In this document: in pieces, positions 1,929 through 63,100 of the stretch
Position numbering within the stretch: the stretch's first letter is position 1
Layout: every line of letters starts with the position of its first letter
Assembly (NCBI RefSeq): GCF_051903065.1
Contig: NZ_CP178439.1
Length of the DNA stretch: 64,000 nt
Reading direction: 5' to 3' (one strand)
Source of the DNA: Escherichia coli
GTDB lineage: Bacteria > Pseudomonadota > Gammaproteobacteria > Enterobacterales > Enterobacteriaceae
Program-made: the position numbers and the translations under genes
The notes under the pieces: model-generated
Seen by the model: the letters and a program-made list of their open reading frames with translations, nothing else
Database searches by the model: none
Told to the model about the DNA's origin: nothing

Positions 1929-2073
1929 AAAAAGGACCGGGTTGATGATAATTTGTAGTGGTGAGCTTCTGGGAGTACAAAACAAAGTGCTCAAAATTGT
2001 CGGGCTCATGGCGTTTAACGGTATTAATTTCGCTTATAATAATCTTTCTATAATAGCCTAAAGGAGAATATCT

Positions 2074-2937: not shown

Positions 2938-2974
2938 TACCAAACATGGTTTTTGAGGCAAGGACGAAACTATC

Positions 2975-26409: not shown

Positions 26410-26566
26410 CTTCATCATTATGAATATGAAAAAGCCGAATGCGGCGACTACCACATTTATCCCCGGGGCTATGGACGCAGCAACTTTGCAGGGCGCAATC
26501 GAAAAAGCTCGCGGGGCCTAAAGTTACTTTCACTTTTGATGAGTACGGCCATGCCGGTCATGGCCG

Positions 26567-28244: not shown

Positions 28245-28263
28245 AGCTACACTCGAATTCTCA

Positions 28264-28283
28264 TACTGTATGTATAAACAGTA
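28264..28283. promoter_or_regulatory. LexA box TACTGTATGTATAAACAGTA upstream of umuD-like gene
   Basis: Perfect CTGT-N8-ACAG, 20 bp upstream of the start codon. Confidence 0.75.
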
Positions 28284-28437
28284 TTGCGAGTTACAGAGAA
28301 AAGATCAAATCTCTCCGGTAACGCTATCGAGCCTGACGAAAAATTAAGCTTTGTCACAAACACCAAAAACCATCTTTTACCGATAATGGCGAGCTGGCCT
28401 ACGAAGAAGGTATACAAGCTAGGATGAAAGGATTCTG

Positions 28438-29055: not shown

Positions 29056-29204
29056 AGCTCCTTGAACCTTGCTTTCAGAAGCCAGGTGTATGAAACCCTA
29101 TTGGATAATATTTAAAGCCAAAATATGGGGATCTCGTATTCGGTGACAGGCATGGTATAAATGATGTGTCTGAGCAACCATCATTGATAATCATGGAGTG
29201 AGTC

Positions 29205-29561
29205 ATGAAATTAAAATACCTTCTGTTATGTGCAACTCTGTCTGTCGCCTTTACCTCCTCTGCGGTCCTTGCATCTGAAAACGGGAAAAAACCGATCCCG
29301 GGCAAATCAGATGTGATGGTTGCCGATATTTGTTTAAAACCTGAAATCCAAAGTGAAACCGATTATAAAAAAACGAAAGAACTGGTAAGGACTGAGTTTG
29401 AAGAAAACTTGCCTGTTGGATCTAAAATCAAAGAAAAAGACTTGAATGCCGTAATTGAAGCATTTGCTACTCGTAAAAGGGACACGCCGGAGCGAGCGGA
29501 CCATTGCCAAGAAAACGTACGTGAAAGATACTGGGAAATGAACCCGGTGAAAGATAAATAA
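29205..29561 (+). CDS. Secreted hypothetical protein (118 aa) with signal peptide
   Basis: N-terminal MKLKYLLLCATLSVAFTSSAVLA signal sequence. Confidence 0.5.
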   Translation: MKLKYLLLCATLSVAFTSSAVLASENGKKPIPGKSDVMVADICLKPEIQSETDYKKTKELVRTEFEENLPVGSKIKEKDLNAVIEAFATRKRDTPERADHCQENVRERYWEMNPVKDK

Positions 29562-29586
29562 AATACATTCACGTTGTATAATATAG

Positions 29587-29612
29587 AGGCTTCAATTCTG
29601 AAGCCTTTTTTA
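29587..29612 (+). terminator. Rho-independent terminator
   Basis: AGGCTTCA-ATTC-TGAAGCCT hairpin followed by TTTTTT. Confidence 0.5.
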
Positions 29613-29810
29613 TTTTCAGATTATTTTGATTCTGACAATAATGAAATAAAATTGAGCATTATCGCTTAACACTGGATAAGAAAAAGAGCCATCTTTTATA
29701 TTGGACAGGTTTGAATTTAAGGAATTTTGGATTCACAGTTTTCTGCGTTATTAGACGGCAAGGGCAATCTGGTATGATTCACCTAACACACGAATCTGGA
29801 AGGAAAAGTA

Positions 29811-29955
29811 TATGGGTGACCTGGTCAGCAAAAATAGCATTGACCGTTTAGAGCGATTTCATTCTTTGCTGGCGGGTCAGTACTGGACGTCCACTGACAG
29901 CATCCCTGAAGAGGGTATTGTGGCAGGGGATACACTGCTCATTACGTCTTTGCGT
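29811..29955 (+). pseudogene. N-terminal 48 codons of an unknown gene, cut by IS26
   Basis: ATG with GGAAGGA upstream; reading frame runs into the IS26 left end. Confidence 0.3.
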
Positions 29956-30775
29956 GGCACTGTTGCAAATAGTCGGTGGTGATAAACTTATCATCCCCTT
30001 TTGCTGATGGAGCTGCACATGAACCCATTCAAAGGCCGGCATTTTCAGCGTGACATCATTCTGTGGGCCGTACGCTGGTACTGCAAATACGGCATCAGTT
30101 ACCGTGAGCTGCAGGAGATGCTGGCTGAACGCGGAGTGAATGTCGATCACTCCACGATTTACCGCTGGGTTCAGCGTTATGCGCCTGAAATGGAAAAACG
30201 GCTGCGCTGGTACTGGCGTAACCCTTCCGATCTTTGCCCGTGGCACATGGATGAAACCTACGTGAAGGTCAATGGCCGCTGGGCGTATCTGTACCGGGCC
30301 GTCGACAGCCGGGGCCGCACTGTCGATTTTTATCTCTCCTCCCGTCGTAACAGCAAAGCTGCATACCGGTTTCTGGGTAAAATCCTCAACAACGTGAAGA
30401 AGTGGCAGATCCCGCGATTCATCAACACGGATAAAGCGCCCGCCTATGGTCGCGCGCTTGCTCTGCTCAAACGCGAAGGCCGGTGCCCGTCTGACGTTGA
30501 ACACCGACAGATTAAGTACCGGAACAACGTGATTGAATGCGATCATGGCAAACTGAAACGGATAATCAACGCCACGCTGGGATTTAAATCCATGAAGACG
30601 GCTTACGCCACCATCAAAGGTATTGAGGTGATGCGTGCACTACGCAAAGGCCAGGCCTCAGCATTTTATTATGGTGATCCCCTGGGCGAAATGCGCCTGG
30701 TAAGCAGAGTTTTTGAAATGTAAGGCCTTTGAATAAGACAAAAGGCTGCCTCATCGCTAACTTTGCAACAGTGCC
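29956..30775 (+). mobile_element. tnpA: IS26 copy 4, transposase CDS 30019..30723, Asn at residue 184
   Basis: Both IRs present; flanks ctttgcgt / cactgatc do not match. Confidence 0.95.
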
Positions 30776-31220
30776 CACTGATCCGCATGCCCGTTCCATA
30801 CAGAAGCTGGGCGAACAAACGATGCTCGCCTTCCAGAAAACCGAGGATGCGAACCACTTCATCCGGGGTCAGCACCACCGGCAAGCGCCGCGACGGCCGA
30901 GGTCTTCCGATCTCCTGAAGCCAGGGCAGATCCGTGCACAGCACCTTGCCGTAGAAGAACAGCAAGGCCGCCAATGCCTGACGATGCGTGGAGACCGAAA
31001 CCTTGCGCTCGTTCGCCAGCCAGGACAGAAATGCCTCGACTTCGCTGCTGCCCAAGGTTGCCGGGTGACGCACACCGTGGAAACGGATGAAGGCACGAAC
31101 CCAGTGGACATAAGCCTGTTCGGTTCGTAAACTGTAATGCAAGTAGCGTATGCGCTCACGCAACTGGTCCAGAACCTTGACCGAACGCAGCGGTGGTAAC
31201 GGCGCAGTGGCGGTTTTCAT
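30776..31220 (-). pseudogene. intI1: Class 1 integron integrase intI1, N-terminal 148 codons, truncated by IS26
   Basis: [49 protein letters not shown]... ends at the IS26 boundary. Confidence 0.85.
31105..31133 (+). promoter_or_regulatory. Integron cassette promoter Pc, hybrid type (-35 TGGACA, 17-bp spacer, -10 TAAACT); P2 lacks the GGG insertion
   Basis: Hexamers read at 31105..31110 and 31128..31133 inside intI1. Confidence 0.6.
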
Positions 31221-42538: not shown

Positions 42539-44440
42539 TTATGCAGCTTGATGATCTGAAGTGTTACCGGAAGTATCTTCGGTTCGTTTTTTGTTTGTGA
42601 TGGATTCACTTTTATCTCGCAAGGCTGAGTCTATGACGTTAAACACCTTTTCCCACCGAGAAATCCAACCGCATATAGGTTGAACACGACATTTTTCCAG
42701 GAAGAAATTTAATAAGTTAGTTTTTTTATTATCTTGCACTTTGAATGGTTCAATTACATCATCGGCATCAACAGATTTTCCTCCGATAAACCACGACGGA
42801 TGGGTTTCCATTGCGTCAGAAATGAAATCGTCAGGGAAGAGGCCTTCAATAGCAAAACCACTTCTTACAGAAATATAGTCTTTATTTGACTCAAATCTAA
42901 TTTGTTTTTTACCAAAGTAGCTTTGTAATCTGGTTCTTTCTTTGACCCCAGCTTCATCACCGTCAAAAACAGATATTACGGGGACATCTTTAGAAATAAA
43001 CTCGTAGCACCCTTTCAAGAATCCCCCAAGTTGACTGACTCCACCAAACTCATCAACTTTAGCACTCCTCAGAAAAGGCCATCTGTTCTTAAACTCATCA
43101 TCTTCAGATGTCAATTTCAATATTGATTCTATATATTGTTTGTCGGTGATACCTTCAACGAAAACTGCACTACTTGATATGTTAAAGAAATCAGAAAATC
43201 TGACCCCAAGATTTTCTCTTATGCTTGCAACTGCATTAAATCTTTTTTCATGCTTTTTATCTTTTGTAACACCGGCGTCATCTTTATATAACTCAATGAT
43301 CTTACTTGGCTCATCACTGACAAATGATAAGGAATGAGTTGTAATAAGAACATAAGCAACATCCATCAGTGATTTGAAAATGTGATTACATGACCGGCCT
43401 AATGAGGGATGCAAGAAAGACTCAGGCTCCTCAACCATCCAAATCGTTTTCTTACCTAGAGTAAGTTTTCTCTCTGAAATAGATTTAAATGAAGAAAATA
43501 AAGATAAGCATTGTAGCCCCATACCTTTACTCGATATCACATTCTCAATAGTATCTTTTATTGAAACCTCAAAGCGACCAAATAACTCATCAAGAGATGG
43601 CGGAGCTTTAATAATAAAGCTACAGTCATCTATACCGCTTAGAATCATTTCATTTGTTATCTTTTCAGATACTTCCAACAGTTTATCATGAATCACTTGA
43701 ACCGATGTTTTCATGGCTGAAGCTACTTCACTCCTAACATATGGAACTAATAGATTATGATATATATCATCAATACTTTTTGACGATGGTATATACACAC
43801 ACTCAAAACTAGAAAGTATTTTTTCTATGAACCTTCTTTCAACAGATGTATACATGGAGGAAGTTACTTCAGGTTTCCTCTTGTAACCTTTAAAGACAGT
43901 GTAAAAGTAATTGTTTTTATTAGATATTGTCAGATGTACGGTCACTTCGTTTTGAGGTGACTTTAACCTGGAGTCATCAATCATGTTAAACAGCTGCAAA
44001 TATCTATCTCTCAAACTTAGCTTTCTGCCTCTTGATTGAGTTGGTTTTGATTCTTGTTGTTTAGAGCTGCCATCATCAAATGAAATAGAATTACTAGGCT
44101 CTTCTTGCTCCCCTAAAACACCAAGTTCAATAATCGAGTCATCATCGTCATCATCATCGTCTTGGCTCAAATCCTCAGAGACATCATCTAGCTCACTTTC
44201 AGAAAAAGTAAATCTTACAGCAAAACTAGTTTGTCCTTGCTTAACACCATGTGGCTTATCTTTTTCATAGTCATATAAGTCAGGATTAAATTTTCCTTCA
44301 AAAAAAACCCTCATAGCTTTTAATAGGTTTGTTTTACCACTGTTGTTTTGCCCAACAATGGTTAATCCATTAAAGTTATCAGAGGATATCTCCCCTGAAA
44401 TAGACCTATACTGAGAAACTTTAAATGATACTATTTCCAT
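42539..44440 (-). CDS. OLD-family ABC-type ATPase fused to a TOPRIM nuclease domain (633 aa)
   Basis: Walker A GQNNSGKT, Walker B IWMVEEPESFLHP, H-loop ITTHS, then TOPRIM-like VFVEGITDKQ and FDGDEAG; eight-Asp run; AT-rich. Confidence 0.7.
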   Translation of the reverse strand: MEIVSFKVSQYRSISGEISSDNFNGLTIVGQNNSGKTNLLKAMRVFFEGKFNPDLYDYEKDKPHGVKQGQTSFAVRFTFSESELDDVSEDLSQDDDDDDDDSIIELGVLGEQEEPSNSISFDDGSSKQQESKPTQSRGRKLSLRDRYLQLFNMIDDSRLKSPQNEVTVHLTISNKNNYFYTVFKGYKRKPEVTSSMYTSVERRFIEKILSSFECVYIPSSKSIDDIYHNLLVPYVRSEVASAMKTSVQVIHDKLLEVSEKITNEMILSGIDDCSFIIKAPPSLDELFGRFEVSIKDTIENVISSKGMGLQCLSLFSSFKSISERKLTLGKKTIWMVEEPESFLHPSLGRSCNHIFKSLMDVAYVLITTHSLSFVSDEPSKIIELYKDDAGVTKDKKHEKRFNAVASIRENLGVRFSDFFNISSSAVFVEGITDKQYIESILKLTSEDDEFKNRWPFLRSAKVDEFGGVSQLGGFLKGCYEFISKDVPVISVFDGDEAGVKERTRLQSYFGKKQIRFESNKDYISVRSGFAIEGLFPDDFISDAMETHPSWFIGGKSVDADDVIEPFKVQDNKKTNLLNFFLEKCRVQPICGWISRWEKVFNVIDSALRDKSESITNKKRTEDTSGNTSDHQAA

Positions 44441-46031: not shown

Positions 46032-46851
46032 GGCACTGTTGCAAATAGTCGGTGGTGATAAACTTATCATCCCCTTTTGCTGATGGAGCTGCACATGAAC
46101 CCATTCAAAGGCCGGCATTTTCAGCGTGACATCATTCTGTGGGCCGTACGCTGGTACTGCAAATACGGCATCAGTTACCGTGAGCTGCAGGAGATGCTGG
46201 CTGAACGCGGAGTGAATGTCGATCACTCCACGATTTACCGCTGGGTTCAGCGTTATGCGCCTGAAATGGAAAAACGGCTGCGCTGGTACTGGCGTAACCC
46301 TTCCGATCTTTGCCCGTGGCACATGGATGAAACCTACGTGAAGGTCAATGGCCGCTGGGCGTATCTGTACCGGGCCGTCGACAGCCGGGGCCGCACTGTC
46401 GATTTTTATCTCTCCTCCCGTCGTAACAGCAAAGCTGCATACCGGTTTCTGGGTAAAATCCTCAACAACGTGAAGAAGTGGCAGATCCCGCGATTCATCA
46501 ACACGGATAAAGCGCCCGCCTATGGTCGCGCGCTTGCTCTGCTCAAACGCGAAGGCCGGTGCCCGTCTGACGTTGAACACCGACAGATTAAGTACCGGAA
46601 CAACGTGATTGAATGCGATCATGGCAAACTGAAACGGATAATCGGCGCCACGCTGGGATTTAAATCCATGAAGACGGCTTACGCCACCATCAAAGGTATT
46701 GAGGTGATGCGTGCACTACGCAAAGGCCAGGCCTCAGCATTTTATTATGGTGATCCCCTGGGCGAAATGCGCCTGGTAAGCAGAGTTTTTGAAATGTAAG
46801 GCCTTTGAATAAGACAAAAGGCTGCCTCATCGCTAACTTTGCAACAGTGCC
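46032..46851 (+). mobile_element. tnpA: IS26 copy 8, transposase CDS 46095..46799, Gly at residue 184
   Basis: Both IRs present; flanks do not match. Confidence 0.95.
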
Positions 46852-48482: not shown

Positions 48483-50100
48483 GAGTGACGGGCACTGGCT
48501 GGCAATGTCTAGCAACGGCAGGCATTTCGGCTGAGGGTAAAAGAACTTTCCGCTAAGCGATAGACTGTATGTAAACACAGTATTGCAAGGACGCGGAACA
48601 TGCCTCATGTGGCGGCCAGGACGGCCAGCCGGGATCGGGATACTGGTCGTTACCAGAGCCACCGACCCGAGCAAACCCTTCTCTATCAGATCGTTGACGA
48701 GTATTACCCGGCATTCGCTGCGCTTATGGCAGAGCAGGGAAAGGAATTGCCGGGCTATGTGCAACGGGAATTTGAAGAATTTCTCCAATGCGGGCGGCTG
48801 GAGCATGGCTTTCTACGGGTTCGCTGCGAGTCTTGCCACGCCGAGCACCTGGTCGCTTTCAGCTGTAAGCGTCGCGGTTTCTGCCCGAGCTGTGGGGCGC
48901 GGCGGATGGCCGAAAGTGCCGCCTTGCTGGTTGATGAAGTACTGCCTGAACAACCCATGCGTCAGTGGGTGTTGAGCTTCCCGTTTCAGCTGCGTTTCCT
49001 GTTTGCCAGCCGGCCCGAGATCATGGGGTGGGTGCTGGGCATCGTTTACCGCGTCATTGCCACGCACCTGGTCAAGAAAGCGGGCCATACCCACCAAGTG
49101 GCCAAGACGGGCGCGGTCACCCTGATCCAGCGTTTTGGATCGGCGCTCAATCTGAATGTTCACTTCCACATGCTGTTTCTCGACGGTGTGTATGTCGAGC
49201 AATCCCACGGCTCAGCGCGTTTCCGCTGGGTCAAGGCGCCGACCAGCCCAGAGCTCACCCAGCTGACGCACACCATCGCCCACCGGGTGGGTCGCTATCT
49301 GGAACGGCAAGGCCTGCTGGAACGGGATGTCGAAAACAGCTATCTGGCCTCGGATGCGGTGGATGACGACCCGATGACACCCCTGCTGGGGCACTCGATC
49401 ACTTACCGTATCGCTGTCGGTTCACAGGCGGGGCGAAAGGTGTTCACTTTGCAAACTCTGCCGACCAGTGGTGATCCGTTCGGTGACGGGATTGGCAAGG
49501 TAGCCGGGTCCAGCCTGCACGCCGGCGTGGCGGCCAGGGCCGATGAACGCAAGAAGCTCGAACGGCTGTGCCGGTACATCAGCCGCCCGGCGGTATCCGA
49601 GAAGCGGCTGTCGTTAACACGAGGCGGCAACGTGCGCTACCAGCTCAAGACGCCGTACCGGGACGGCACCACGCACGTCATTTTCGAACCATTGGATTTC
49701 ATTGCAAGGCTGGCCGCCCTGGTACCGAAGCCCAGAGTCAACCTAACCCGCTTCCACGGGGTGTTCGCACCCAACAGTCGGCACCGGGCGTTGGTCACGC
49801 CGGCAAAACGGGGCAGGGGCAACAAGGTCAGGGTGGCTGATGAACCGGCAACACCAGCACAACGGCGAGCGTCGATGACATGGGCGCAACGGCTCAAGCG
49901 TGTTTTCAATATCGACATCGAGACCTGCAGCGGCTGCGGCGGCGCCATGAAAGTCATCGCCTGCATTGAAGACCCTATAGTGATCAAGCAGATCCTTGAT
50001 CACCTGAAGCACAAAGCCGAAACCAGCGGGACCAGGGCGTTACCCGAAAGCCGGGCGCCACCGGCTGAGCTGCTCCTGGGTCTGTTTGACTGACGAGCCT
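48483..50100 (+). mobile_element. ISCR2 (IS91-like rolling-circle element), transposase CDS 48600..50093; element boundaries approximate
   Basis: 497-aa IS91-family transposase; a second partial copy of the first ~300 bp at 52767..53072 defines the 5' boundary. Confidence 0.75.
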
Positions 50101-51224: not shown

Positions 51225-52439
51225 ATGACCACCACACGCCCCGCGTGGGCCTATACGCTGCCGGCAGCACTGCTGCTGATGGCTCCTTTCGACATCCTCG
51301 CTTCACTGGCGATGGATATTTATCTCCCTGTCGTTCCAGCGATGCCCGGCATCCTGAACACGACGCCCGCTATGATCCAACTCACGTTGAGCCTCTATAT
51401 GGTGATGCTCGGCGTGGGCCAGGTGATTTTTGGTCCGCTCTCAGACAGAATCGGGCGACGGCCAATTCTACTTGCGGGCGCAACGGCTTTCGTCATTGCG
51501 TCTCTGGGAGCAGCTTGGTCTTCAACTGCACCGGCCTTTGTCGCTTTCCGTCTACTTCAAGCAGTGGGCGCGTCGGCCATGCTGGTGGCGACGTTCGCGA
51601 CGGTTCGCGACGTTTATGCCAACCGTCCTGAGGGTGTCGTCATCTACGGCCTTTTCAGTTCGATGCTGGCGTTCGTGCCTGCGCTCGGCCCTATCGCCGG
51701 AACATTGATCGGCGAGTTCTTGGGATGGCAGGCGATATTCATTACTTTGGCTATACTGGCGATGCTCGCACTCCTAAATGCGGGTTTCAGGTGGCACGAA
51801 ACCCGCCCTCTGGATCAAGTCAAGACGCGCCGATCTGTCTTGCCGATCTTCGCGAGTCCGGCTTTTTGGGTTTACACTGTCGGCTTTAGCGCCGGTATGG
51901 GCACCTACTTCGTCTTCTTCTCGACGGCTCCCCGTGTGCTCATAGGCCAAGCGGAATATTCCGAGATCGGATTCAGCTTTGCCTTCGCCACTGTCGCGCT
52001 TGTAATGATCGTGACAACCCGTTTCGCGAAGTCCTTTGTCGCCAGATGGGGCATCGCAGGATGCGTGGCGCGTGGGATGGCGTTGCTTGTTTGCGGAGCG
52101 GTCCTGTTGGGGATCGGCGAACTTTACGGCTCGCCGTCATTCCTCACCTTCATCCTACCGATGTGGGTTGTCGCGGTCGGTATTGTCTTCACGGTGTCCG
52201 TTACCGCGAACGGCGCTTTGGCAGAGTTCGACGACATCGCGGGATCAGCGGTCGCGTTCTACTTCTGCGTTCAAAGCCTGATAGTCAGCATTGTCGGGAC
52301 ATTGGCGGTGGCACTTTTAAACCGTGACACAGCGTGGCCCGTGATCTGTTACGCCACGGCGATGGCGGTACTGGTTTCGTTGGGGCTGGTGCTCCTTCGG
52401 CTCCGTGGGGCTGCCACCGAGAAGTCGCCAGTCGTCTAA
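51225..52439 (+). CDS. floR: Florfenicol/chloramphenicol efflux MFS transporter FloR
   Basis: 404-aa protein MTTTRPAWAYTLPAALLLMAPFDILASLAMDIYLPVVPAMPGILNTTPAMIQ... Confidence 0.9.
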   Translation: MTTTRPAWAYTLPAALLLMAPFDILASLAMDIYLPVVPAMPGILNTTPAMIQLTLSLYMVMLGVGQVIFGPLSDRIGRRPILLAGATAFVIASLGAAWSSTAPAFVAFRLLQAVGASAMLVATFATVRDVYANRPEGVVIYGLFSSMLAFVPALGPIAGTLIGEFLGWQAIFITLAILAMLALLNAGFRWHETRPLDQVKTRRSVLPIFASPAFWVYTVGFSAGMGTYFVFFSTAPRVLIGQAEYSEIGFSFAFATVALVMIVTTRFAKSFVARWGIAGCVARGMALLVCGAVLLGIGELYGSPSFLTFILPMWVVAVGIVFTVSVTANGALAEFDDIAGSAVAFYFCVQSLIVSIVGTLAVALLNRDTAWPVICYATAMAVLVSLGLVLLRLRGAATEKSPVV

Positions 52440-53317: not shown

Positions 53318-54137
53318 GGCACTGTTGCAAATAGTCGGTGGTGATAAACTTATCATCCCCTTTTGCTGATGGAGCTGCACATGAACCCATTCAAAGGCCG
53401 GCATTTTCAGCGTGACATCATTCTGTGGGCCGTACGCTGGTACTGCAAATACGGCATCAGTTACCGTGAGCTGCAGGAGATGCTGGCTGAACGCGGAGTG
53501 AATGTCGATCACTCCACGATTTACCGCTGGGTTCAGCGTTATGCGCCTGAAATGGAAAAACGGCTGCGCTGGTACTGGCGTAACCCTTCCGATCTTTGCC
53601 CGTGGCACATGGATGAAACCTACGTGAAGGTCAATGGCCGCTGGGCGTATCTGTACCGGGCCGTCGACAGCCGGGGCCGCACTGTCGATTTTTATCTCTC
53701 CTCCCGTCGTAACAGCAAAGCTGCATACCGGTTTCTGGGTAAAATCCTCAACAACGTGAAGAAGTGGCAGATCCCGCGATTCATCAACACGGATAAAGCG
53801 CCCGCCTATGGTCGCGCGCTTGCTCTGCTCAAACGCGAAGGCCGGTGCCCGTCTGACGTTGAACACCGACAGATTAAGTACCGGAACAACGTGATTGAAT
53901 GCGATCATGGCAAACTGAAACGGATAATCAACGCCACGCTGGGATTTAAATCCATGAAGACGGCTTACGCCACCATCAAAGGTATTGAGGTGATGCGTGC
54001 ACTACGCAAAGGCCAGGCCTCAGCATTTTATTATGGTGATCCCCTGGGCGAAATGCGCCTGGTAAGCAGAGTTTTTGAAATGTAAGGCCTTTGAATAAGA
54101 CAAAAGGCTGCCTCATCGCTAACTTTGCAACAGTGCC
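53318..54137 (+). mobile_element. tnpA: IS26 copy 9, transposase CDS 53381..54085, Asn at residue 184
   Basis: Both IRs present; flanks do not match. Confidence 0.95.
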
Positions 54138-54843
54138 TGATGAAGCCGGGTGTGCCGGTGATCCCAAGCGCTTCGCCCAGCTGCATGTTGCCGGAGATCA
54201 CGTTTTCATATCGGTTTTTTTCCCTGTCAGAAAACGTGCTGTTAAACCCTGACTTATCCACCACAGTATTAAAGTCGCTGAGTTCGAATTTGCGTTGAGA
54301 GGTCATGAAGGTATGAGCCACAGCCATCAGGTTGTTGTGGTATTTACGATAGGCTTCAGCACCGAAATTCTGATAGACGTGCAGACCCGTAGCGGCCCCC
54401 ATGGCAGATACAGGTTTTGAACCGGCAAAAATCGGGAATTCTTTAAAGAAGAATTTTACATCTTTGCTCTGATTCATTACCGATTCAACAACAGGTGTAA
54501 CCCGCATGCAGTAAATACACTGATAGTCGAAGAACTCGATTACCGCGACGTCGGCGTCATCCGGGCCGATGTTTGGCGTCTCCTTGGTATCCAGCAGAGC
54601 TGGCGCATATGGAATTATTCGTTCCACTGAGGCACTTACGTTCTGATTTTCCAGCGCCTTACCTGCTTCCACTAAATAATGGGGATTTTTTACCAGGTAA
54701 GTAGCGGCAATTTTGCCAATTTCTTCCTCACTGAGCACCTTCGGTTTAAAATAAGTTGCCGCGATTAACGCCGAGGCAGCGGTAGCAATTACCGCAGAAA
54801 TTAAAATCGTGGCCATCGGTTTTAAATAAAATTCTTTAGACAT
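54138..54843 (-). pseudogene. Thioredoxin-fold DsbA/DsbC-like protein, 3'-truncated by IS26
   Basis: CIYC active-site motif, N-terminal TM/signal; reading frame runs into IS26. Confidence 0.55.
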
Positions 54844-54949
54844 AGCTACCTTTATGCTTTTCAGCCTGTTAGTTATTAACCTGCGATGGATTATACTGGC
54901 CCGGTAAATCGGAATTATTCGTGAAACAATGCTTTTTGGAGATTAAAGG

Positions 54950-55561
54950 ATGATTAGGCAGGGCTTTATACTCACAACCGCAATGCTTTTGAGTGGTTGT
55001 GGATATCATTTCGCAAACCAGGTAGATGCGTACGATCTAATGCCTCGTCCTGTTACAAATAAAAGGTTTCAGATAGTCCCTCCGGACGAAAGTATTCAGT
55101 CCAGAATGTTTTCAGGCCGTTTTGCTGATGGATTAGCAAAAAAAGGAGTCATTATTTCCACTCACCAGCCAGATTATGTGCTCAGGTTCCGAATGAGCAG
55201 CTCACAGGAGAACATGCAGTATAGCGAGCAGCTTCTTACTGGGGTGACAGGCTACGTTGTAGATAAAAAGACAACGAGAACTGACAAGCATGGCGAATCG
55301 CATACTGACTATGACTACAGGCCGGTCGATGGGGTAATAGGCACTGAGACGATGTCGCAGATGCACTATATGCGACAGCTGGATGTCGAGGTATACCCGT
55401 CAGCGAAAGGAGCAAAGCAGGTTCTGAAAGTGAGTATGCAAAGCAATGCACCTGTGCCGTCAGACAGCATTGCTTATTCAGCAATGATCGACGCCTTTAC
55501 TGATAAATTTGATGCGCCGCTGCGTTCCGGAAATTATGTTGCAGTGATCCCCTGGAACTGA
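54950..55561 (+). CDS. Lipoprotein (203 aa)
   Basis: Lipobox LLSGC at the signal-peptide end. Confidence 0.5.
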   Translation: MIRQGFILTTAMLLSGCGYHFANQVDAYDLMPRPVTNKRFQIVPPDESIQSRMFSGRFADGLAKKGVIISTHQPDYVLRFRMSSSQENMQYSEQLLTGVTGYVVDKKTTRTDKHGESHTDYDYRPVDGVIGTETMSQMHYMRQLDVEVYPSAKGAKQVLKVSMQSNAPVPSDSIAYSAMIDAFTDKFDAPLRSGNYVAVIPWN

Positions 55562-55620
55562 AAGCAGACGGCGGGAAGAGAATGTTCAAAAGTGACTTTT
55601 GGACACGCACATAAACGTGG

Positions 55621-56043
55621 CTATCGCCCTCCCCCATTAAAATCATAAAGTCGGTAAAGATCGCCCATCGTGATGGAATTGGGCTTATTAATGATTAGAT
55701 ACTGTAACTGTTCTTTATGTTGAGTACTGGCGGCTGCATTCATAAGCACTTCCAGGTAGAACTTGTAGCCTATGCTTCGCTCTGAATACATATACTGGAA
55801 CTGCATCAGTAAAATGCCTGACATAACATACAACAGCAGCAGACTGAGTAACACAGTGCTATCAGGCTGTTCCAGTGCCATACTGACATACCCTGAACCC
55901 AGAATGCACAGAAGCCAACCCGTCATTAGAGCAGGCACCCTACGACTCAGACGTTCATAACAACGTTTTATTACGGGATCCCGGAGATACTTTTTGTCAG
56001 GTATCCCCGTTGCCCTGATGACGAAGTTACTGAGTATCGACAT
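55621..56043 (-). CDS. Membrane protein (140 aa)
   Basis: ORF with two TM helices. Confidence 0.45.
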   Translation of the reverse strand: MSILSNFVIRATGIPDKKYLRDPVIKRCYERLSRRVPALMTGWLLCILGSGYVSMALEQPDSTVLLSLLLLYVMSGILLMQFQYMYSERSIGYKFYLEVLMNAAASTQHKEQLQYLIINKPNSITMGDLYRLYDFNGGGR

Positions 56044-56076
56044 CTTTTTTCCTTCTGGACGCTCTCAGTCAATAAA

Positions 56077-56469
56077 TCAGGCCAGGCGCTCATTGAAAGC
56101 TACCACGAGCTGCGAATCGGGATTTTTTACCAGTTCGGGCCGGATAACTTTTAGTTGCCTCGTTGGGGCGAGCTCATCTGTAGGCCTGATGGTGGTATTA
56201 CCCGGCCCCTTGCGGGTACTGTCGGTGTTTACCTTGAGCTTTTTATTTCCCAGGTAGCTTTCCATCTTTTTAGAGATGGTGTCACCTGTGGTCGCAACAC
56301 CAGAGAGTTCCTTTAGTTGTTCACCTTGATCCATTTGTACCGATGACATCAGAAATACGATTCCTGGATCGTTTTCCGTTCCACAGGCTCCGTACTGACA
56401 TTGTGCAGCGAAAACGGGCTGTACACCTACAGCAACCAGCATTAACGTACTCAGTAAAGTAGATTTCAT
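56077..56469 (-). CDS. Secreted protein (about 130 aa)
   Basis: Signal peptide MKSTLLSTLMLVAVGVQPVFAAQ. Confidence 0.4.
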   Translation of the reverse strand: MKSTLLSTLMLVAVGVQPVFAAQCQYGACGTENDPGIVFLMSSVQMDQGEQLKELSGVATTGDTISKKMESYLGNKKLKVNTDSTRKGPGNTTIRPTDELAPTRQLKVIRPELVKNPDSQLVVAFNERLA

Positions 56470-56493
56470 ACACACCTCTTACAGTCGGAAAAG

Positions 56494-57243
56494 TTACTTT
56501 TGCGCAGCGCCCATTTGGGTCACCAGGTTTTCCGGGCTCAGCCACCCCGTAAATAACTGCGGTTTGCCGCTTAGTGTCACCATGGTAGGAGTACCTTGCA
56601 GCGGGATTGTTGAGGCCACCTGGAAATGCGATTTGATAATGTTTAAGCAAGCCTCATCAGGACGTCCTTCCGGGATAGTTGAAACCGGATTCATCGCTGC
56701 ATCCAGAGCTTCGTTTGGCTTTGCTGAACACCAGATTTTGGCCATGTTCCCGGCTACTACCGAGTTCAGTCCTGCACGTGGGAATGCAAGAAACTTAATC
56801 GAAATACCGGCATCAAGATAAGACTTCAGATCATGATGCAGTTTTTGGCAGTATCCACAGGTTATATCGGTAAAGATAGCAAGCCGGTATTTTTCGTTTG
56901 GTGATTTGTAGTCGATGGATTTTGTTTTGGATGCGAATTCCCGGACGCCCATTAAAATGGCCTGCTCAGTGGTGTTTACCACATCTTTACCTTTCACGTG
57001 GAATAAGCTTCCGGTAAAAATGTAATCTCCGTCTTTGCTCACGTAACTTACCCCCTCCCTGGAAATCACCGTAAAAATATCTTTTACTGGCGAGGGTTCG
57101 ACGTGCTCGATTGAAAGCCCAATGGCTTTGAGCTTATCCCGGGCTGCATCTGGCAGTACCATTGTATTAACCGGCTCGGCATTCATCGTGAAGGCGGTAC
57201 TTAATGAAAGAAGTAATACCGATGCCTTAATAATTTTTTTCAT
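56494..57243 (-). CDS. dsbC: Thiol:disulfide interchange protein DsbC-like (conjugation-associated)
   Basis: Signal peptide, CGYC active site, DsbC-like length (249 aa). Confidence 0.7.
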   Translation of the reverse strand: MKKIIKASVLLLSLSTAFTMNAEPVNTMVLPDAARDKLKAIGLSIEHVEPSPVKDIFTVISREGVSYVSKDGDYIFTGSLFHVKGKDVVNTTEQAILMGVREFASKTKSIDYKSPNEKYRLAIFTDITCGYCQKLHHDLKSYLDAGISIKFLAFPRAGLNSVVAGNMAKIWCSAKPNEALDAAMNPVSTIPEGRPDEACLNIIKSHFQVASTIPLQGTPTMVTLSGKPQLFTGWLSPENLVTQMGAAQK

Positions 57244-57390
57244 TTATGCTCCTTGAATCGAGCACTAATATTATCACGCCCAAAAATTCCAGAATTTTGC
57301 TTAAACGCTTAAATCAACGGGTAAAGCCGAAAGAAAGTCGATAGATATATGGGAGAATAGATAAAACGTAGATTCAGTGGAGAAATCGTT

Positions 57391-57930
57391 GTGTTTACAC
57401 CACCAGCAGATGATGTGAAACCTATTCCCGTTCCTGATGAGATTTACACTCAGTGCATTACGGATGCCGCCCGCTTCTTCGGAATTGATGCCGAACTGGT
57501 TTTTACGTTGTTTGACAATGAAGGCGGTAAGGTTGGTACTTTCAGCAGGAATACTAACGGCACTTATGATATTGGCCCGATGCAGATCAACTCATCCAAT
57601 CTGCCTGAAATAAAAAAGCATTTCCCGACTGTAACGTGGCGGGTTCTGGCTTACGATGCTTGCGCTAGTTTCTGGGTTGGAACATGGTGGCTCTACAGAA
57701 AAATTGTTGATCGCAAGGGCAATGTGTTTGAAGGGATTGCAGATTACAACAGCAAAACCCCAAAGGTACGTGCAAAGTACATATTTAACTTCATGGTAAA
57801 GTACAATCGCCGGATCCAGCAGCGTAACGGGATGGGTGAGCTTTATCAATGGACCCAACAACCTCCTCGATACAATGGCCATATAGCTAAAAATGTCCCG
57901 GAGCAAAACCCGACTCCTGTTGTTAAATAA
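57391..57930 (+). CDS. Lytic transglycosylase (SLT domain) associated with transfer apparatus
   Basis: YDIGPMQIN SLT motif in a 179-aa protein. Confidence 0.65.
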   Translation: MFTPPADDVKPIPVPDEIYTQCITDAARFFGIDAELVFTLFDNEGGKVGTFSRNTNGTYDIGPMQINSSNLPEIKKHFPTVTWRVLAYDACASFWVGTWWLYRKIVDRKGNVFEGIADYNSKTPKVRAKYIFNFMVKYNRRIQQRNGMGELYQWTQQPPRYNGHIAKNVPEQNPTPVVK

Positions 57931-58012
57931 ATTCAACCTGATATTACAGAAGATCATCGAGTAGCTTGGGTACCCCCCCGCAAAAAATTCGCATAGACTC
58001 AGGGGTAATAAA

Positions 58013-58579
58013 TTGTCTTTTTCTGCAAGAAATATATTTAAGATTCTCTCTTCTTTCTTGATGCAGAAAAGCCCTCTTCATGAAGAAGTATGTGTTCCTG
58101 AAGAAACAACAGCTGGTTTATGGGGCCCTCTCCCTGATTCGCATGTCGTGCTTTTCTTAGATTTCGATGGGGTTTGTCACAGGTGCAAAAATGAAACCTT
58201 TGAGCGAATGCCATTGGTGGAAAAATTACTGGATAAATGCCCTTCCATGGTGATTGTCATCTCCAGTTCGTGGCGTGAATGTGCCAGTATAACTTACCTG
58301 AAATCTCTTTTCCGGCTACCTTATAGAGACAAAGTCATAGGTGCTACCGATTCGGTATATTTAAAACCTAATCAGTCAGGTGTGCGGGCTGCTGAGTGTG
58401 AGGACTTTGTATTTTCACATCGAGTTAAAGCATTTATCTGCCTTGATGACGACGAATCATTATTCCCGGTCGGTTATCCACATTTGCAAAAAACCAATTA
58501 TTACACCGGCCTCACCGAATCTGATCTTGCAGCTCTTAACACCAGGTATCATCTGCTTATGAAACGTTGGGCTTCCTGA
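58013..58579 (+). CDS. HAD-superfamily-like hydrolase (188 aa)
   Basis: FLDFDGV motif I-like sequence; assignment tentative. Confidence 0.4.
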   Translation: MSFSARNIFKILSSFLMQKSPLHEEVCVPEETTAGLWGPLPDSHVVLFLDFDGVCHRCKNETFERMPLVEKLLDKCPSMVIVISSSWRECASITYLKSLFRLPYRDKVIGATDSVYLKPNQSGVRAAECEDFVFSHRVKAFICLDDDESLFPVGYPHLQKTNYYTGLTESDLAALNTRYHLLMKRWAS

Positions 58580-58686
58580 ATTAAAGTAACTTTTACGGAG
58601 AGCATGCCCGCATTATCAGTTCTATGCTTCTCCATTTCTGCCCCGGGTCAAAGCATTGCACAGTTGGAAGAAAACATGCCGGTCTC

Positions 58687-59976
58687 TTAAGCTTGCTGCT
58701 CAGTTTGGTTCCGGTGCTGAAAAACCTGCCAACGGTGCTTTAGGAATTCAGTATTGATGGGTTTACGCAGCGGCTTAATAAACTCTCCTTGATATGCCGC
58801 TAAATCATGATCTACCGCCAAAGCTTCAGCGAGAATGTTAACCTCCAACGTCACCGGATGAATGGCAATCATGTTTGCGTCGAAAAGATCGTGTATATCA
58901 TGGCGTAAGAGCAACCCATTTGTATAATGGTCTACTCCTCCGTTACGATGCTCCATCAGATGAGCAGCCTCAGTGCGCTGGCGCAGTCTAGAGCCTGTAA
59001 TCACACATTGGTCATAACAGTTGTTGCGGACGGCTTCTGCAAATGAGGCCTGATCTGGTCGTGTCTCGACAGTTGTCTTACTACCCTTACGCTTACCCGG
59101 TACAGTAGTTTCATCAGGAATATTCGGCTGAAGCTCCTTTTCTTCTATACCATCAGTCTTCATAGCGACCATAATCGCGGCCGGTGGAGATTTAGGCTGA
59201 TCTTCCTGCGATCTTTCGCGGCCACCAACTGGATACCCTAGAAAACCCTCAATGATCTCTAGTGGAGGTAATGTAGCGTTTGAACGTGCATAAATAGCGA
59301 ACTCTGCGGCACGTCCGCCGGGAATATATCTACGTACCAGTATTGGAAGAGAGGCTTCTTCATCTGGTTCCTCTTTTTCCGACAGGATTATTCGTTCGGT
59401 GAGACGGGCTGAATTTTTTTTCATTTCACTCAACAGTCTATTGCGTTCTTTTACCTTTCGGTCATTATCCTCCAACATCTTACGATGACTAACCTTAGCC
59501 AGATGGTCTTCCAGTTCCTGTATATATTCGGGATCGATAGTGTCAATTAGACCGAACGCCATCAACCGCTCCCCCCTTGTTTTACAAGATTCTAGCCGAA
59601 CGCGAATGTACTCCTTACGCTTGGCCATCAAATGTTCTTTTTGTTTTTTTTCTCGAATTACACGGAGCTGAGTATTGTAATTAGAATAAACGGTTTCGCT
59701 ATTCTGCTCTGTCTCTAGAGCAAATTTTTGTAGGTGTTCACGTAGTTTTTTACGGGTATTTTTGGGGGCATGCATTACGGTACGCTCAATGTATGAGCCT
59801 GTGCAGCGTAAAGAAAGTACAGTTTCAGCATGGGAATAACCAGCATTGAGACGATAGCGGGCAATTTTAAGCAAATTATTAAAGTGTGCACCATTACATA
59901 TACCTAGTTCTTCCAAGACACGACGTTCTCTATCATTAATAGATGGATGGTTAATATCTTTTACTTTGTTTGCCAT
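58687..59976 (-). CDS. HNH endonuclease domain protein with charged, probably coiled-coil N-terminal region (429 aa)
   Basis: C-terminal AAHLMEHRNGGVDHYTNGLLLRHDIHDLFD HNH-like motif. Confidence 0.55.
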   Translation of the reverse strand: MANKVKDINHPSINDRERRVLEELGICNGAHFNNLLKIARYRLNAGYSHAETVLSLRCTGSYIERTVMHAPKNTRKKLREHLQKFALETEQNSETVYSNYNTQLRVIREKKQKEHLMAKRKEYIRVRLESCKTRGERLMAFGLIDTIDPEYIQELEDHLAKVSHRKMLEDNDRKVKERNRLLSEMKKNSARLTERIILSEKEEPDEEASLPILVRRYIPGGRAAEFAIYARSNATLPPLEIIEGFLGYPVGGRERSQEDQPKSPPAAIMVAMKTDGIEEKELQPNIPDETTVPGKRKGSKTTVETRPDQASFAEAVRNNCYDQCVITGSRLRQRTEAAHLMEHRNGGVDHYTNGLLLRHDIHDLFDANMIAIHPVTLEVNILAEALAVDHDLAAYQGEFIKPLRKPINTEFLKHRWQVFQHRNQTEQQA

Positions 59977-60065
59977 GTCCTGTGTCTCAGTGCCTATTCA
60001 GCCGGAACATCTACTACATAAAGAACGAGATTGTACAGAAATCAGCTAAGTTTATGAATAAAAAA

Positions 60066-60090
60066 GGCCGCAAATTTATACTTTGCGGCC
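60066..60090 (-). terminator. Rho-independent terminator downstream of the TraG-like gene
   Basis: GGCCGCAAA-TTTATAC-TTTGCGGCC hairpin with a U-run on the minus strand. Confidence 0.5.
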
Positions 60091-60156
60091 TTCACTGTTT
60101 AACACCATATTTTAGTAAATACGTTTAATTTTCATTAGGTTATATTTGAAACTCAC

Positions 60157-63100
60157 CTACCTTTTATTTTCATTAAGCCACTGATCCGCTTTATCGACAC
60201 GTGACTGGTAAGGCTCATTTGTGTTGCTCAGCTCTGACTTCATGTACTGAATGAATTCATCTGCTTTCTGAGGCCCAAAGCGTGGGTCATCCGTCAATTG
60301 CTGCCGGATAGCCCTTTCAGAGTTCTGCGCTGCATTCGCATAAGTCGAAACGCCGTCGCTGCTAATACTCTGATACCGGTCACTTACAGCTGCGACGCCA
60401 TCAGACATCTGCATGTGATTAAGGACTTTACCCTGGAGAGAATCAGGCATATTTGCAGGGTTAGAGGCATCATTTGCTATCGATGTCTGGGTTTGAAGGA
60501 TGCCCGCTCCCGTAAGCATCTCATTTACCGGTTTCGCCCCAACGCTGGTTAGCGTATCCGAAACAAATTGCTGGCCCCCGAGTAGCGCACCAGAAATCGC
60601 GCCCCGCTCAGTGTTGGCCTCTATCTTTTCCCCAACCAAGCGATCTGTGACGGTCTGAGTGCGGTTACCAACGAGACCACCGCCCGACCCACCCTCTCCT
60701 AGGTTTGCCCGTACGACTGACTCAAGTGAACCATCAGCTCTGTTATGAGTGTTGAAACTGCTATGGATGCTCTGAACGTCATTCATACTCCAGTTAACGT
60801 TATAGTTACCCAGTTCATTAAGGATCTTCTGGGTATCCGCTTTGAGCTGCTCTCTTTCGGCACCGGTAGCCATGGTGCTGGCACCATAGGTAAAGACAGC
60901 TTGCTGTGCCAATTCAGCTCGCTTATCGTCCCGGCTTAAGTTCGGGTTGTTGGCAACACGACTAAAGTAGTTATCAGTGTTATTAGATAAGCCACGAACT
61001 TGACCGCTCTGATACATACTGTTCAAAGCAGTGGCTCGTTGATCCATTCCATCACCAACCACCCGACCTCCGGTAGCCTTTTCCAGATCGTTAAATGTGC
61101 CTTCTGCATTTCTGACATCCTGACCTGAATTGACGACTTTCTCTACACCCTGATTATTCAGTACAGGGCCATTCGTTTTGAGAGAATTGAGCACATTCCT
61201 TTCTTCATCAGAATAAGTGCGGCCCACGTTGTTGTTATGTATTCCCTGAATATCGCCTTTGCCCGCGTTATCAAGGTTATACGGAGTAAAGCCAGCTTCA
61301 CTTTTTCCAGGGACACGCTGAGTCGCGTCCTGAGCGTTGGAGGAAAGACCGAGTTTAGCCTGCGAATCAACACTTCCACCCAGTTCCCCTACGCGTGACG
61401 CACTCATCACGCCAGACGTATTTACGCTGTCAGGAGTTCTATCCTGTGCCTGAGTGATAGTATTAATTCCTGACCCTTCGCCTGAAATTCTGTCGAGCTG
61501 ATTGGTGATAGGTAGCAGCTGCTGTGCATTACCACCGAAGTCGGAAACCAGACTTTTAAGCAGGCTGGAGGTTTCACGGAGATCCTGTTTATTACTTTCG
61601 GCCGTCTCTCCCCGGGCGGTATCAATCGCAATTTTTTGCTCACTGAAATCTCGTGTTGCAGCCACAAGCGCGTCAGTACGTTGAAGCTGCGAACCAAGCT
61701 GATTACTGGCCTTGAAGGTATCGTTATAGGAGTTGAATTTCTCCATAAACGCATTCTCATCCAGCCCATTCTTACGAGCAAAATTCCTTACATCATCATC
61801 ACTGAAGTTTTTGTTGCGAATAGAATCGGAGAACCTGTCCAGGTTAATGCTTTGTTTAGAATCAAGGCTCATTCCACTATTGGAGCTGGCGTTAGTCGAT
61901 ACCGATGTAGAAATGTTTTGCGCCATCGTCTGTGTCGCCTGGTTCATTTTCGACGATGCTTCTTTAAACGCATTAGTATTGGATATCTGATCGCTGCTTA
62001 CCTGAGACGCCGCTTTACTGAACTGGTCAGTCAAAGCAGAATCCTGGCTAAGCTGATTCGTGATTGCTTTTGAAAGGTCATTTGAAAGCGAGTCACTGCC
62101 TGTATTGGTCTTAGATGCGCCGCTACTCAATTGCCCTGCTACAGCTGCTTTCAGCCCGGCTCCGTTGCCAGTTCCAGCACCTCCATTAAGCCCAGCGTTT
62201 AGAATAACATTTGAAGCAATGCTGGCCATCTGAGACGCACTCACCCCATGTTTCGTTGCAATACCTTCTGCTACAGAGGCACCAATCTTATCCGAGATCT
62301 GCTTCATTGTTTGCAGGTTGGTTGAGAACTGCTGGCTCGACTGTCCTGACCTTCCAATTTCACTCATCTGACTGTAACCAGCCTGGAATGAATTACTTGC
62401 CGCACTCATAACTGATGAGGTTACAGCTGATCCTTGCCCCTGGCTGTTAGCGATACTTGAACCAGCATTCCACATTCCAAGACGGAAATTACTTGAATCA
62501 ACTGCGCCGCCATCGCTGTATCCCTGACCGGTACTGGTCAAGGCGGTTCGTGTCACGTCACCAAATGAAGATTTACCGCTGTTAGGGCCATCCCATACTT
62601 TGGGCGTTACATGACCAGTATCCACCGGCGCATCGGGGGTCACTCCCTTAACCGCATTCATCATCGGGTGAATCGACTGTGTCATCAGGAATAATGTGAG
62701 TACCGGAATCAGAGCATAAAGCGCGGAAGCAACAGACAGGTATGAACTGTATGTTTCCGCAAGCCCTGGGAGCCCCATCCACGTGACGGCATTATTCTGG
62801 CTGTTGAGGGTGCTCCAGGTATCCAGATCGGCCGTCGCGACTTTCTTCACATACGCGTTGACCATTACTGCCGTAAGCGGCCACATATTCACGAAGAGAA
62901 TAAGTTGCAAATATTTCGCCGCAGCGGCAACACCATTACCACCTAACGCCAGCAGCATAAGCAAAGCAAATGGAGCAACCATGTAAGCAAACATCTCAAG
63001 GAATGCGATTGCTGCTCCAGACAGTTGTAACCACAACTGGCCCTGTGAAGCCATTGTGTTGGTTCGCTTCAGAGAAGCCTCAAACAACTGCATATCGGAA

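Follow-up and report, generated by a model that had tools for sequence, protein, structure and literature searches.

Which gene does IS26 interrupt at the edge of the Tra1 transfer region of this plasmid, by what rearrangement, and with what consequences for the encoded protein and for conjugation? The stretch of DNA that was analysed, 64 kb in length (hereafter, the window), belongs to an IncHI2 plasmid, as identified by comparison of backbones. The IncHI2 backbone restarts at position 54138, immediately 3′ of an 820-bp IS26, and the 8,863 bp from this point onward match pM160133_p1, an IncHI2 plasmid, with 100% identity. The initial annotation described a thioredoxin-fold gene interrupted by IS26 in the transfer region, and this description holds, with exact coordinates, with Tra1 as the adjoining set of transfer genes and with backbone identity from 54138 (Table 1). 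The gene split by IS26 is the IncHI2 counterpart of R0135 of plasmid R27, at the Tra1 edge, and is denoted dsbA here.

The window contains eight full copies of IS26, a common mobile element associated with resistance, with both orientations present. The copy that abuts dsbA with its IRR end (copy 8) is bounded by the terminal repeats GGCACTGTTGCAAA and TTTGCAACAGTGCC and belongs to the G184N variant (IS26-v1), with AAC at codon 184 of Tnp26; its sequence is the same as that of the copies at 18780, 25590 and 29956. The name IS26 for this element matches the annotation in RefSeq records.

Table 1. Features of the interrupted locus, the inverted segment and the neighbouring genes (positions in the 64-kb window).
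Feature	Position	Strand	Description
IS26 copy 3 (IS26-v1)	25590-26409	-	Opposite orientation to copy 8, sequence identical
Second target-site copy, CTTCATCA	26410-26417	+	Reverse complement of the first; IRL side of IS26 copy 3
Inverted IncHI2 backbone block	26410-29955	-	dsbA 3′ end, umuC, umuD, two hypothetical genes
Inverted segment between inverted IS26 copies	26410-53317		About 27 kb; reversed compared with related IncHI2 plasmids
Displaced dsbA 3′ end	26411-26521	+	Codons 234-269 and stop
ISCR2	48600-50093		Just left of IS26 copy 8
floR	51225-52439		Just left of IS26 copy 8
IS26 copy 8	53318-54137	+	820 bp, 14-bp terminal inverted repeats, one 234-aa Tnp26
Foreign tail of chimeric ORF	54031-54137	-	IS26 end; 35 codons and stop
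Target-site copy, TGATGAAG	54138-54145	+	8 bp, IRR side of IS26 copy 8
dsbA 5′ part	54138-54843	-	Codons 1-235 and 1 nt; 100% identical to intact WP_000031377.1
Lipoprotein gene (R27 R0134 position)	54950-55561	+	203 aa, lipobox LLSGC; intact, 100% identical to reference
Small membrane protein gene (R27 R0133 position)	55621-56043	-	140 aa, two hydrophobic helices; intact
Secreted protein gene (R27 R0132 position)	56077-56475	-	About 130 aa, signal peptide MKSTLLSTLMLVAVGVQPVFA; intact
DsbC homologue (R27 R0131 position)	56494-57243	-	249 aa, CGYC, signal peptide; intact

The intact dsbA gene (WP_000031377.1) consists of 810 nt and encodes 269 amino acids. Its reading frame begins at 54843 on the minus strand, and nucleotides 1-706 are left in place at the locus; IS26 separates the final 34 codons from the rest of the gene, the break falling after codon 235 of 269. 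The frame runs on into the element, to form a chimeric ORF of 270 amino acids (54031-54843) in which the last 35 codons come from the antisense strand of IS26 and encode three cysteines among the 35 residues. The 33-mer that spans the junction is TTTGCAACAGTGCCTGATGAAGCCGGGTGTGCC.

The 3′ end of this gene was initially thought to be lost to IS26 and the ISCR2-floR island. It is indeed severed by IS26, and ISCR2 and floR adjoin the element, but it is not deleted: the missing end is displaced and inverted at 26411-26521, where it adjoins IS26 copy 3 together with umuDC and translates into FIIMNMKKPNAATTTFIPGAMDAATLQGAIEKARGA followed by the stop, the same as the native C-terminus. The halves of dsbA thus sit 27.6 kb apart, each beside an IS26-v1 copy. 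The two backbone fragments share 8 bp of the reference sequence L001 (positions 4001-4008), and the block at 26410-29955 is 99.97% identical to L001 from 4008 to 463, in reverse orientation. Both the floR block (53072 to 49548) and the umuDC block (29955 to 26410) are reversed relative to dsbA, and in-silico flipping of 26410-53317 yields the reference order floR, IS26, umuDC, dsbA. The presence of the same 8 bp, TGATGAAG, at the flanks of both IS26 copies points to one IS26 transposition into dsbA accompanied by the 27-kb inversion. Overall, it is very likely that a single IS26 transposition into codon 235/236 of dsbA, with duplication of an 8-bp target and inversion of the intervening segment, produced this arrangement, that the truncated product is most probably inactive, and that any effect on transfer would be at most partial.

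Such a product forms in one of two ways: by inverse intramolecular replicative transposition, in one step, or by simple insertion of IS26 and later homologous recombination between copies of opposite orientation. For IncHI2 plasmids, 8-bp repeats in reverse complement next to inverted IS26 copies have been published as the hallmark of inverse intramolecular replicative transposition (PMC9019673). The window shows the corresponding pattern: an inverted IS26 pair, an inverted segment between the two, and the 8-mer on the inner side of one copy and, as its reverse complement, on the outer side of the other. The one-step route predicts an ancestor in which a single IS26 is flanked by delta-tetA and delta-Tn1721 tnpA; this junction pair is absent from PLSDB, where only single-flank matches (84% coverage) were detected, and either route may have operated.

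A plausible alternative, to which we assign somewhat less than an even chance, is that a simple IS26 insertion hit dsbA and that the 27-kb inversion is secondary, resulting from homologous recombination or from an assembly or isomer artefact, not from one replicative step. Insertion followed by recombination yields formally the same product, such that the two routes are not separable from the sequence, and recombination has ample substrate in the window, where full IS26 copies number eight and occur in either orientation; the absence of the predicted one-step ancestor from PLSDB also speaks for this scenario. However, the simple insertion, in which IS26 is flanked by the two parts of dsbA, is likewise absent from PLSDB and from the RefSeq complete E. 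coli genomes, and the identity of the two flanking IS26 copies, both of the hyperactive v1 type, is compatible with either route. An inversion between 820-bp repeats could, furthermore, reflect how the assembly was resolved, or be one isomer of a pair that coexists in the population, without affecting the interruption of the gene: dsbA is interrupted whichever way the 27-kb segment is oriented. The single transposition into dsbA remains the preferred reading, by whichever of the two routes the segment was inverted.

The initial annotation further placed two ‘DsbC-like’ paralogues at this locus, with a CIYC active site in the left ORF and CGYC in the right one. Both motifs are present, but the two genes are not DsbC-like paralogues: only the right one is a true DsbC homologue. 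The intact left protein matches the DSBA domain (PF01323) with 72.2 bits against the Pfam gathering cut-off of 25.6 bits, over profile positions 2-190 of 191, whereas the truncated ORF scores 64.2 bits over residues 101-235 and profile positions 2-171 of 191; DsbC_N (PF10411) has no match in either form at E <= 0.01. In the AlphaFold2 (AF2) model of the left protein (pLDDT 87.5), an alpha-helical arm takes the place where DsbC would have DsbC_N. The model includes an N-terminal hydrophobic anchor helix (residues 7-31), two helices (39-52 and 54-83) that form a long N-terminal extension ahead of the catalytic domain and align with the N-terminus of BcfH, and a helical insert in the thioredoxin domain (residues 144-225). 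The CIYC site corresponds to residues 109-112, and both C109 and C112 are invariant among 44 homologues. The best PDB sequence match is BcfH (7JVE, E = 1.5e-35, residues 37-268, reaching the C-terminus), and Foldseek ranks BcfH first (E = 5e-19) and ScsC next. The ScsC_N domain (PF18312) gives no profile match in the left protein at E <= 0.01 and is recorded in many homologues that are 36-41% identical. Judging from the profile matches and the predicted fold, the product of the left gene is a thiol-disulfide oxidoreductase of the DsbA family, anchored in the membrane and of the BcfH/ScsC type.

The right-hand gene, the second thioredoxin-fold gene, lies 1.65 kb further right and is intact. It contains both DsbC_N (PF10411, 51.6 bits) and Thioredoxin_2 (PF13098, 59.8 bits), and its PDB matches include 4npb (E = 1e-43) and E. 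coli DsbC (1eej, E = 8e-37). With NF008129, the NCBIfam equivalog model for chromosomal DsbC, it scores 178 bits, under the cut-off of 215 bits, and so appears to represent a plasmid-specific DsbC branch. The three genes located between the two thioredoxin-fold genes are as first described, namely, a lipoprotein with its LLSGC lipobox, a membrane protein with two hydrophobic helices and a secreted protein with a signal peptide; none of the three products has a meaningful Pfam or NCBIfam match, and the counterpart of the first is labelled ‘lipoprotein’ in the R27 record. The neighbouring genes of the cluster are 100% identical in sequence to those of intact IncHI2 backbones.

What remains of the dsbA product appears to be insufficient for a functional enzyme. 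The 5′ part of the gene retains the transmembrane anchor, the N-terminal helical arm, the CIYC site and the GTP loop, and the chimeric ORF would keep all of these, with the arm as an oligomerisation arm, along with the promoter. The segment lost from the modelled fold comprises half of the strand 233-238, the strand 248-251 and the helix 256-266, and holds G252, invariant among the 44 homologues, and I263, nearly invariant. With the beta-beta-alpha half of its thioredoxin fold removed, the chimera is probably inactive; on the strength of the sequence and the model, the 270-aa protein is most probably misfolded as well. A polar effect on the neighbouring genes was considered and rejected: dsbA is the final gene in its direction of transcription, converges on umuC in the original arrangement and is transcribed away from the lipoprotein gene, so that no effect on downstream genes is expected.

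The initial annotation suggested that the truncation may impair disulfide formation in pilus proteins, and conjugation, unless the second gene compensates, a point on which published data lead to differing expectations. With respect to conjugation, at most a partial drop in the assembly of the mating apparatus or in the efficiency of transfer may be expected. Disulfide chemistry may be provided by DsbA and DsbC of the host, by the intact DsbC homologue of the plasmid and by TrhF, the product of a thioredoxin-family gene of R27 that we infer to be present in this plasmid beyond the window.

A costlier outcome, in which the R0135-type DsbA is specifically needed to fold a cysteine-rich component of the IncHI mating apparatus and the plasmid is markedly transfer-deficient, appears rather unlikely. 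Several observations do point in this direction: in the plasmid Rts1, conjugation falls by a factor of more than 100 when orf206, a distant homologue of R0135, is deleted, even if the host is dsbC+ (PMC10838148); R0135 itself is co-induced with the tra genes under transfer-permissive conditions (PMC7366339); and the gene is intact in nearly all records. In PLSDB, dsbA is present in one place at 80% or more of its length in 941 of the 945 records that carry it (about 99.6% of these IncHI2 records), and it is nearly always found together with the DsbC-like gene (945 vs 951 records). Against this possibility, R0135 has no known function and is listed under non-tra genes in the R27 study (PMC10838148, PMC7366339), the identity between Orf206 and R0135 is only about 23%, and enterobacterial hosts supply DsbA and DsbB. 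Moreover, loss of the dsbC of R27 is reported to be masked by host DsbC, with which the plasmid DsbC is redundant for R27 transfer, and to matter only in a dsbC-null host (experiments cited in PMC10838148). The more general proposition is that the IncHI (MOBH/MPF_F) mating apparatus has a folding factor of its own in the R0135-type, BcfH/ScsC-like membrane-anchored DsbA, a protein that is conserved in about 99.6% of IncHI2 plasmids, syntenic in IncHI1 and co-regulated with the tra genes; in our estimate, this is unlikely. The reading preferred here is the one with an inactive product and an effect on transfer that is partial at most.

The weakest alternative, that the 270-aa ORF is a natural, different and complete gene that ends inside IS26 by chance, as its length, nearly equal to the native 269 aa, might hint, is extremely improbable and was rejected on alignment, which identifies the ORF as a truncated copy of the 269-aa protein: the DNA for residues 1-235 is 100% identical to a gene that has 34 further conserved codons in 941 plasmids, the final 35 codons are antisense IS26 sequence, the native 3′ end lies elsewhere in the window and bears the target-site duplication, and the Pfam match ends at profile position 171 of 191.

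The junction between IS26 and dsbA has no contiguous match in PLSDB, searched with 200-bp and 303-bp queries, or among the complete genomes of E. coli in RefSeq. The hits with an apparent ‘100% coverage’ each consist of two separate pieces, with IS26 located 230-440 bp further on, in umuC.

The practical value of these observations is small: this is an ordinary rearrangement caused by IS26 in a multiresistance plasmid of the IncHI2 type, probably inactivating one accessory gene, and adds one more case of a well-known phenomenon to the record. The annotation is corrected, the interrupted gene being a DsbA of the BcfH/ScsC type and not a DsbC paralogue. Since disruptions of the R0135-type dsbA are exceedingly rare among IncHI2 plasmids and its product has no assigned role, this natural interruption could serve to test whether the enzyme contributes to the thermosensitive IncHI conjugation. 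Should the protein prove to be a dedicated folding factor, the plasmid would be a rare natural knockout, and the role of the gene would show itself either in impaired transfer or in rescue by Dsb enzymes of the host or by the DsbC of the plasmid.

Comparison with known systems places both the rearrangement and the genes. The event does not differ in kind from the IS26 inverse intramolecular replicative transposition described in IncHI2 plasmids; only the target, codon 235/236 of dsbA, is new among the collections searched. The closest relative of the locus is that of the IncHI1 plasmid R27, whose R0129-R0135 cluster keeps its synteny in IncHI2, with the same neighbourhood of trhG, a HAD gene, a lytic transglycosylase gene, the DsbC-like gene, two small genes, the lipoprotein gene, dsbA and umuCD. 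The R27 R0135 ‘dsbA’ product (WP_000593841.1), also of 269 aa, shares about 75% amino-acid identity with the plasmid protein and is intact, whereas the dsbA analysed here is split by IS26; in addition, an HNH endonuclease gene separates the HAD gene from trhG in IncHI2. In the IncT plasmid Rts1, which likewise belongs to the MOBH/MPF_F type, the mating-pair-formation genes include one for Orf206, a CXXC protein with a thioredoxin fold, which is reported to be homologous to R0135 and is experimentally shown to be needed for efficient transfer (PMC10838148).

Among proteins of solved structure, the interrupted protein most resembles BcfH of the bcf fimbrial operon of Salmonella Typhimurium (7JVE), with which it shares the long helical arm, the CXXC motif, the G-T-P loop and the C-terminal beta-beta-alpha elements; it is only 29-30% identical to BcfH, has an N-terminal anchor helix and lies beside a conjugation system rather than in a fimbrial operon. 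The DsbA-like catalytic domain combined with an N-terminal oligomerisation arm is shared also with ScsC, the trimeric disulfide isomerase of Proteus mirabilis (4XVW) and Caulobacter (7RGV), and the plasmid gene has no copper-resistance context. Both BcfH and ScsC are described as homotrimers with oxidase and/or isomerase activity (PMC11653150, PMC11634996). The DsbC proteins of E. coli and R27, with their DsbC_N dimerisation domain and CGYC thioredoxin domain, share this architecture with the right-hand gene only.

The window belongs to an IncHI2 plasmid, and sequence comparison shows positions 54138–63000 to be 100% identical to pM160133_p1 (typed as IncHI2A, MOBH, MPF_F); the same genes are present in about 950 related plasmids in PLSDB. 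Position 54138, where the initial annotation placed the start of the affected region, is the exact boundary between IS26 and the backbone, and its end, 57243, is where the right-hand thioredoxin-fold gene has its start codon. To the left of this IS26 lie a tetA fragment, lysR, floR, a DUF3363/virD2-like gene and ISCR2. In plasmids where it is uninterrupted, the left gene has 810 nt and encodes a 269-aa ‘DsbA family protein’ (WP_000031377.1). Here, its reading frame enters IS26 and continues for 35 codons and a stop, yielding a 270-aa ORF (54031–54843). The proposed truncation is borne out by alignment, which identifies the ORF as a shortened copy of a longer conserved protein and rules out that it is a different, complete one. 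The claim that IS26 cuts one of two DsbC-like genes of the transfer region, with loss of the 3′ end, holds for the interruption, but the gene belongs to the DsbA family and its 3′ end is still in the window, inverted, at 26411–26521.

Features of the window and of the modelled DsbA family protein
Feature	Position	Strand	Remarks
Full IS26 copies (8)	849–1668, 18780–19599, 25590–26409, 29956–30775, 33026–33845, 35026–35845, 46032–46851, 53318–54137
Boundary IS26	53318–54137		820 bp, 14-bp terminal repeats, directly left of backbone
Resistance genes besides floR	1–25589 and 30776–35845		lnu(F), sul3, aph(6)-Id, tetR/tet(A), dfrA1-like cassette, arr, aph(3')-Ia
dcm-type cytosine methylase gene	11059–12528
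ISCR2	48600–50093
floR	51225–52439
dsbA 5′ part	54843–54138	minus	nt 1–706 left in window
DsbC homologue	56494–57243		DsbC_N + Thioredoxin_2, CGYC site
DsbA model, hydrophobic anchor helix	residues 7–31
DsbA model, long helical arm	residues 39–83
DsbA model, strand	residues 99–105
DsbA model, CIYC	residues 109–112		at start of helix 110–125
DsbA model, strand	residues 129–135
DsbA model, helical insertion	residues 144–225
DsbA model, G-T-P	residues 230–232		invariant
DsbA model, strands	residues 233–238 and 248–251
DsbA model, last helix	residues 256–266

The right-hand product is a true DsbC homologue, as originally proposed, by its domains, CGYC site and matches to DsbC structures (E = 1e-43 to 8e-37). 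The same assignment fails for the left protein, which matches DSBA (PF01323, 72 bits) and Thioredoxin_4 in a Pfam scan, without a match to DsbC_N, and has Salmonella BcfH as its best solved relative (7JVE; E = 1.5e-35, aligned from residue 37 through to the C-terminus), followed by ScsC proteins. Foldseek groups the AlphaFold2 model of the intact protein (44 homologues as input, pLDDT 87.5) with BcfH (E = 5e-19) and trimeric ScsC, and many homologues carry an ScsC_N domain. Because BcfH and ScsC are trimeric and have isomerase activity (PMC11653150, PMC11634996), the left protein may work somewhat like DsbC, yet outside the DsbC family.

Positions 463–4008 of the IncHI2 reference backbone (L001) correspond to window positions 29955–26410, reversed, at 99.97% identity; besides the dsbA 3′ end, this block carries umuC, umuD and two hypothetical genes, and translation of 26411–26521 gives the native DsbA C-terminus, FIIMNMKKPNAATTTFIPGAMDAATLQGAIEKARGA*. 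Both backbone fragments share 8 bp of reference sequence: TGATGAAG lies at the IRR side of IS26 53318–54137, and its reverse complement at the IRL side of the oppositely oriented IS26 25590–26409. No other 8-bp flank is common to two of the eight full copies. The IS26 copies at 53318–54137 and 25590–26409 are identical, and Tnp26 codon 184 encodes Asn in both, which marks them as IS26-v1 (PMC9019673). Flipping 26410–53317 restores the reference order (floR block, IS26, umuDC, dsbA), so the arrangement results from a single transposition of IS26 into dsbA, with the 27-kb inversion occurring in the same step or afterwards. Inversion in the same step would be inverse intramolecular replicative transposition, the signature of which has been described for IncHI2 plasmids (PMC9019673), although a PLSDB search did not find the predicted one-step ancestor. 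Inversion could also have come later, by homologous recombination between inverted IS26 copies, although the simple-insertion form is likewise absent from PLSDB. In either orientation of the segment dsbA is interrupted; as IS26 rearrangements go, the event is routine, at a site absent from the collections searched.

Mapped onto the AlphaFold2 model, a break after residue 235 costs the protein half of strand 233–238 together with the following strand and the last helix, elements that make up the beta-beta-alpha half of the thioredoxin fold; G252, which is invariant, and I263, which is nearly so, are among the residues lost. The replacement consists of 35 unrelated residues, three of them cysteines. 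Model and conservation make loss of function the most likely outcome. The neighbouring genes should be unaffected, since dsbA is read toward the IS, the lipoprotein gene is transcribed divergently from it, and umuC was originally convergent with it. Identity to the reference is 100% for the lipoprotein, membrane-protein, secreted-protein, DsbC-like, lytic transglycosylase, HAD, HNH and trhG genes. For the lipoprotein ORF (54950–55561, plus strand), annotation in the RefSeq IncHI2 records is limited to a 122-aa 3′ portion, and in the R27 record all 203 aa are annotated as ‘lipoprotein’. Since a lipobox is present in the long form, the start in the IncHI2 records is probably called too far downstream.

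The IS26 copies fall into two sequence types, with Tnp26 codon 184 being AAC (G184N, IS26-v1) in the four that start at 18780, 25590, 29956 and 53318, and GGC in the other four. A 301-bp fragment with the IRL end only (39111–39411) marks a further truncation event within the resistance region. The cargo of this region is unusual in including, at 36049–38934 (minus strand), an IS110-family transposase gene adjoining a 487-aa ORF with a match to glutathione synthase of the eukaryote type (E = 5e-70, below the cut-off). A 633-aa ORF (42539–44440, minus strand) has a single match, weak and N-terminal, to the retron Eco8 effector family (E = 3e-7, far below the cut-off); the gene may be uncharacterised cargo of an ATPase or defence-like kind. 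Several IncHI2 plasmids (e.g. AP026496.1, NZ_CP034785.1 and NZ_OY754378.1) have IS26 in umuC, 230–440 bp further downstream, where it leaves a DUF4113 fragment and does not touch dsbA; the resistance region thus repeatedly ends at the umuC/dsbA boundary.

At least 80% of the IncHI2 dsbA is in one piece in 941 of the 945 PLSDB records with the gene, and this rarity of disruption suggests some selective value. One of the only four exceptions is the IncHI2 plasmid pMCR9-57185 (NZ_OP950837.1; positions 3001–5900 of L005), where a group II intron with ltrA splits dsbA. The DsbC-like gene, the other thioredoxin-fold gene, is truncated in nature as well: IncHI2 plasmid NZ_CP025340.1 retains just 46% of it (191215–191556; hit H220).

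The IncHI1 plasmid R27 (L006) has this cluster too, conserved and syntenic, with the order trhF, trhH, trhG, HAD (R0129), lytic transglycosylase (R0130), DsbC-like gene, two small genes, lipoprotein, DsbA (R0135) and umuCD. From this layout, a TrhF counterpart is expected beyond the window. Between the HAD gene and trhG, IncHI2 carries an HNH endonuclease gene (429 aa, 58687–59976, minus strand) that R27 lacks at that position. Induction of R0130 and R0135 accompanies that of the tra genes, both at the permissive temperature and in an htdA mutant, although the authors count the two as non-tra genes (PMC7366339); R0135 has no known function (PMC10838148). The affected gene is an uncharacterised, well-conserved accessory gene. 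The suggestion that conjugation would be impaired unless another enzyme compensates is reasonable; host DsbA and DsbC and the plasmid DsbC homologue are still present as disulfide enzymes, the expected TrhF counterpart would add another, and a strong transfer defect seems rather unlikely. Deletion of R27 dsbC lowers transfer 10,000-fold, in a dsbC-null host only, and deletion of Rts1 orf206, which is related to R0135 at 23% identity, lowers it more than 100-fold even when host DsbC is present (PMC10838148).
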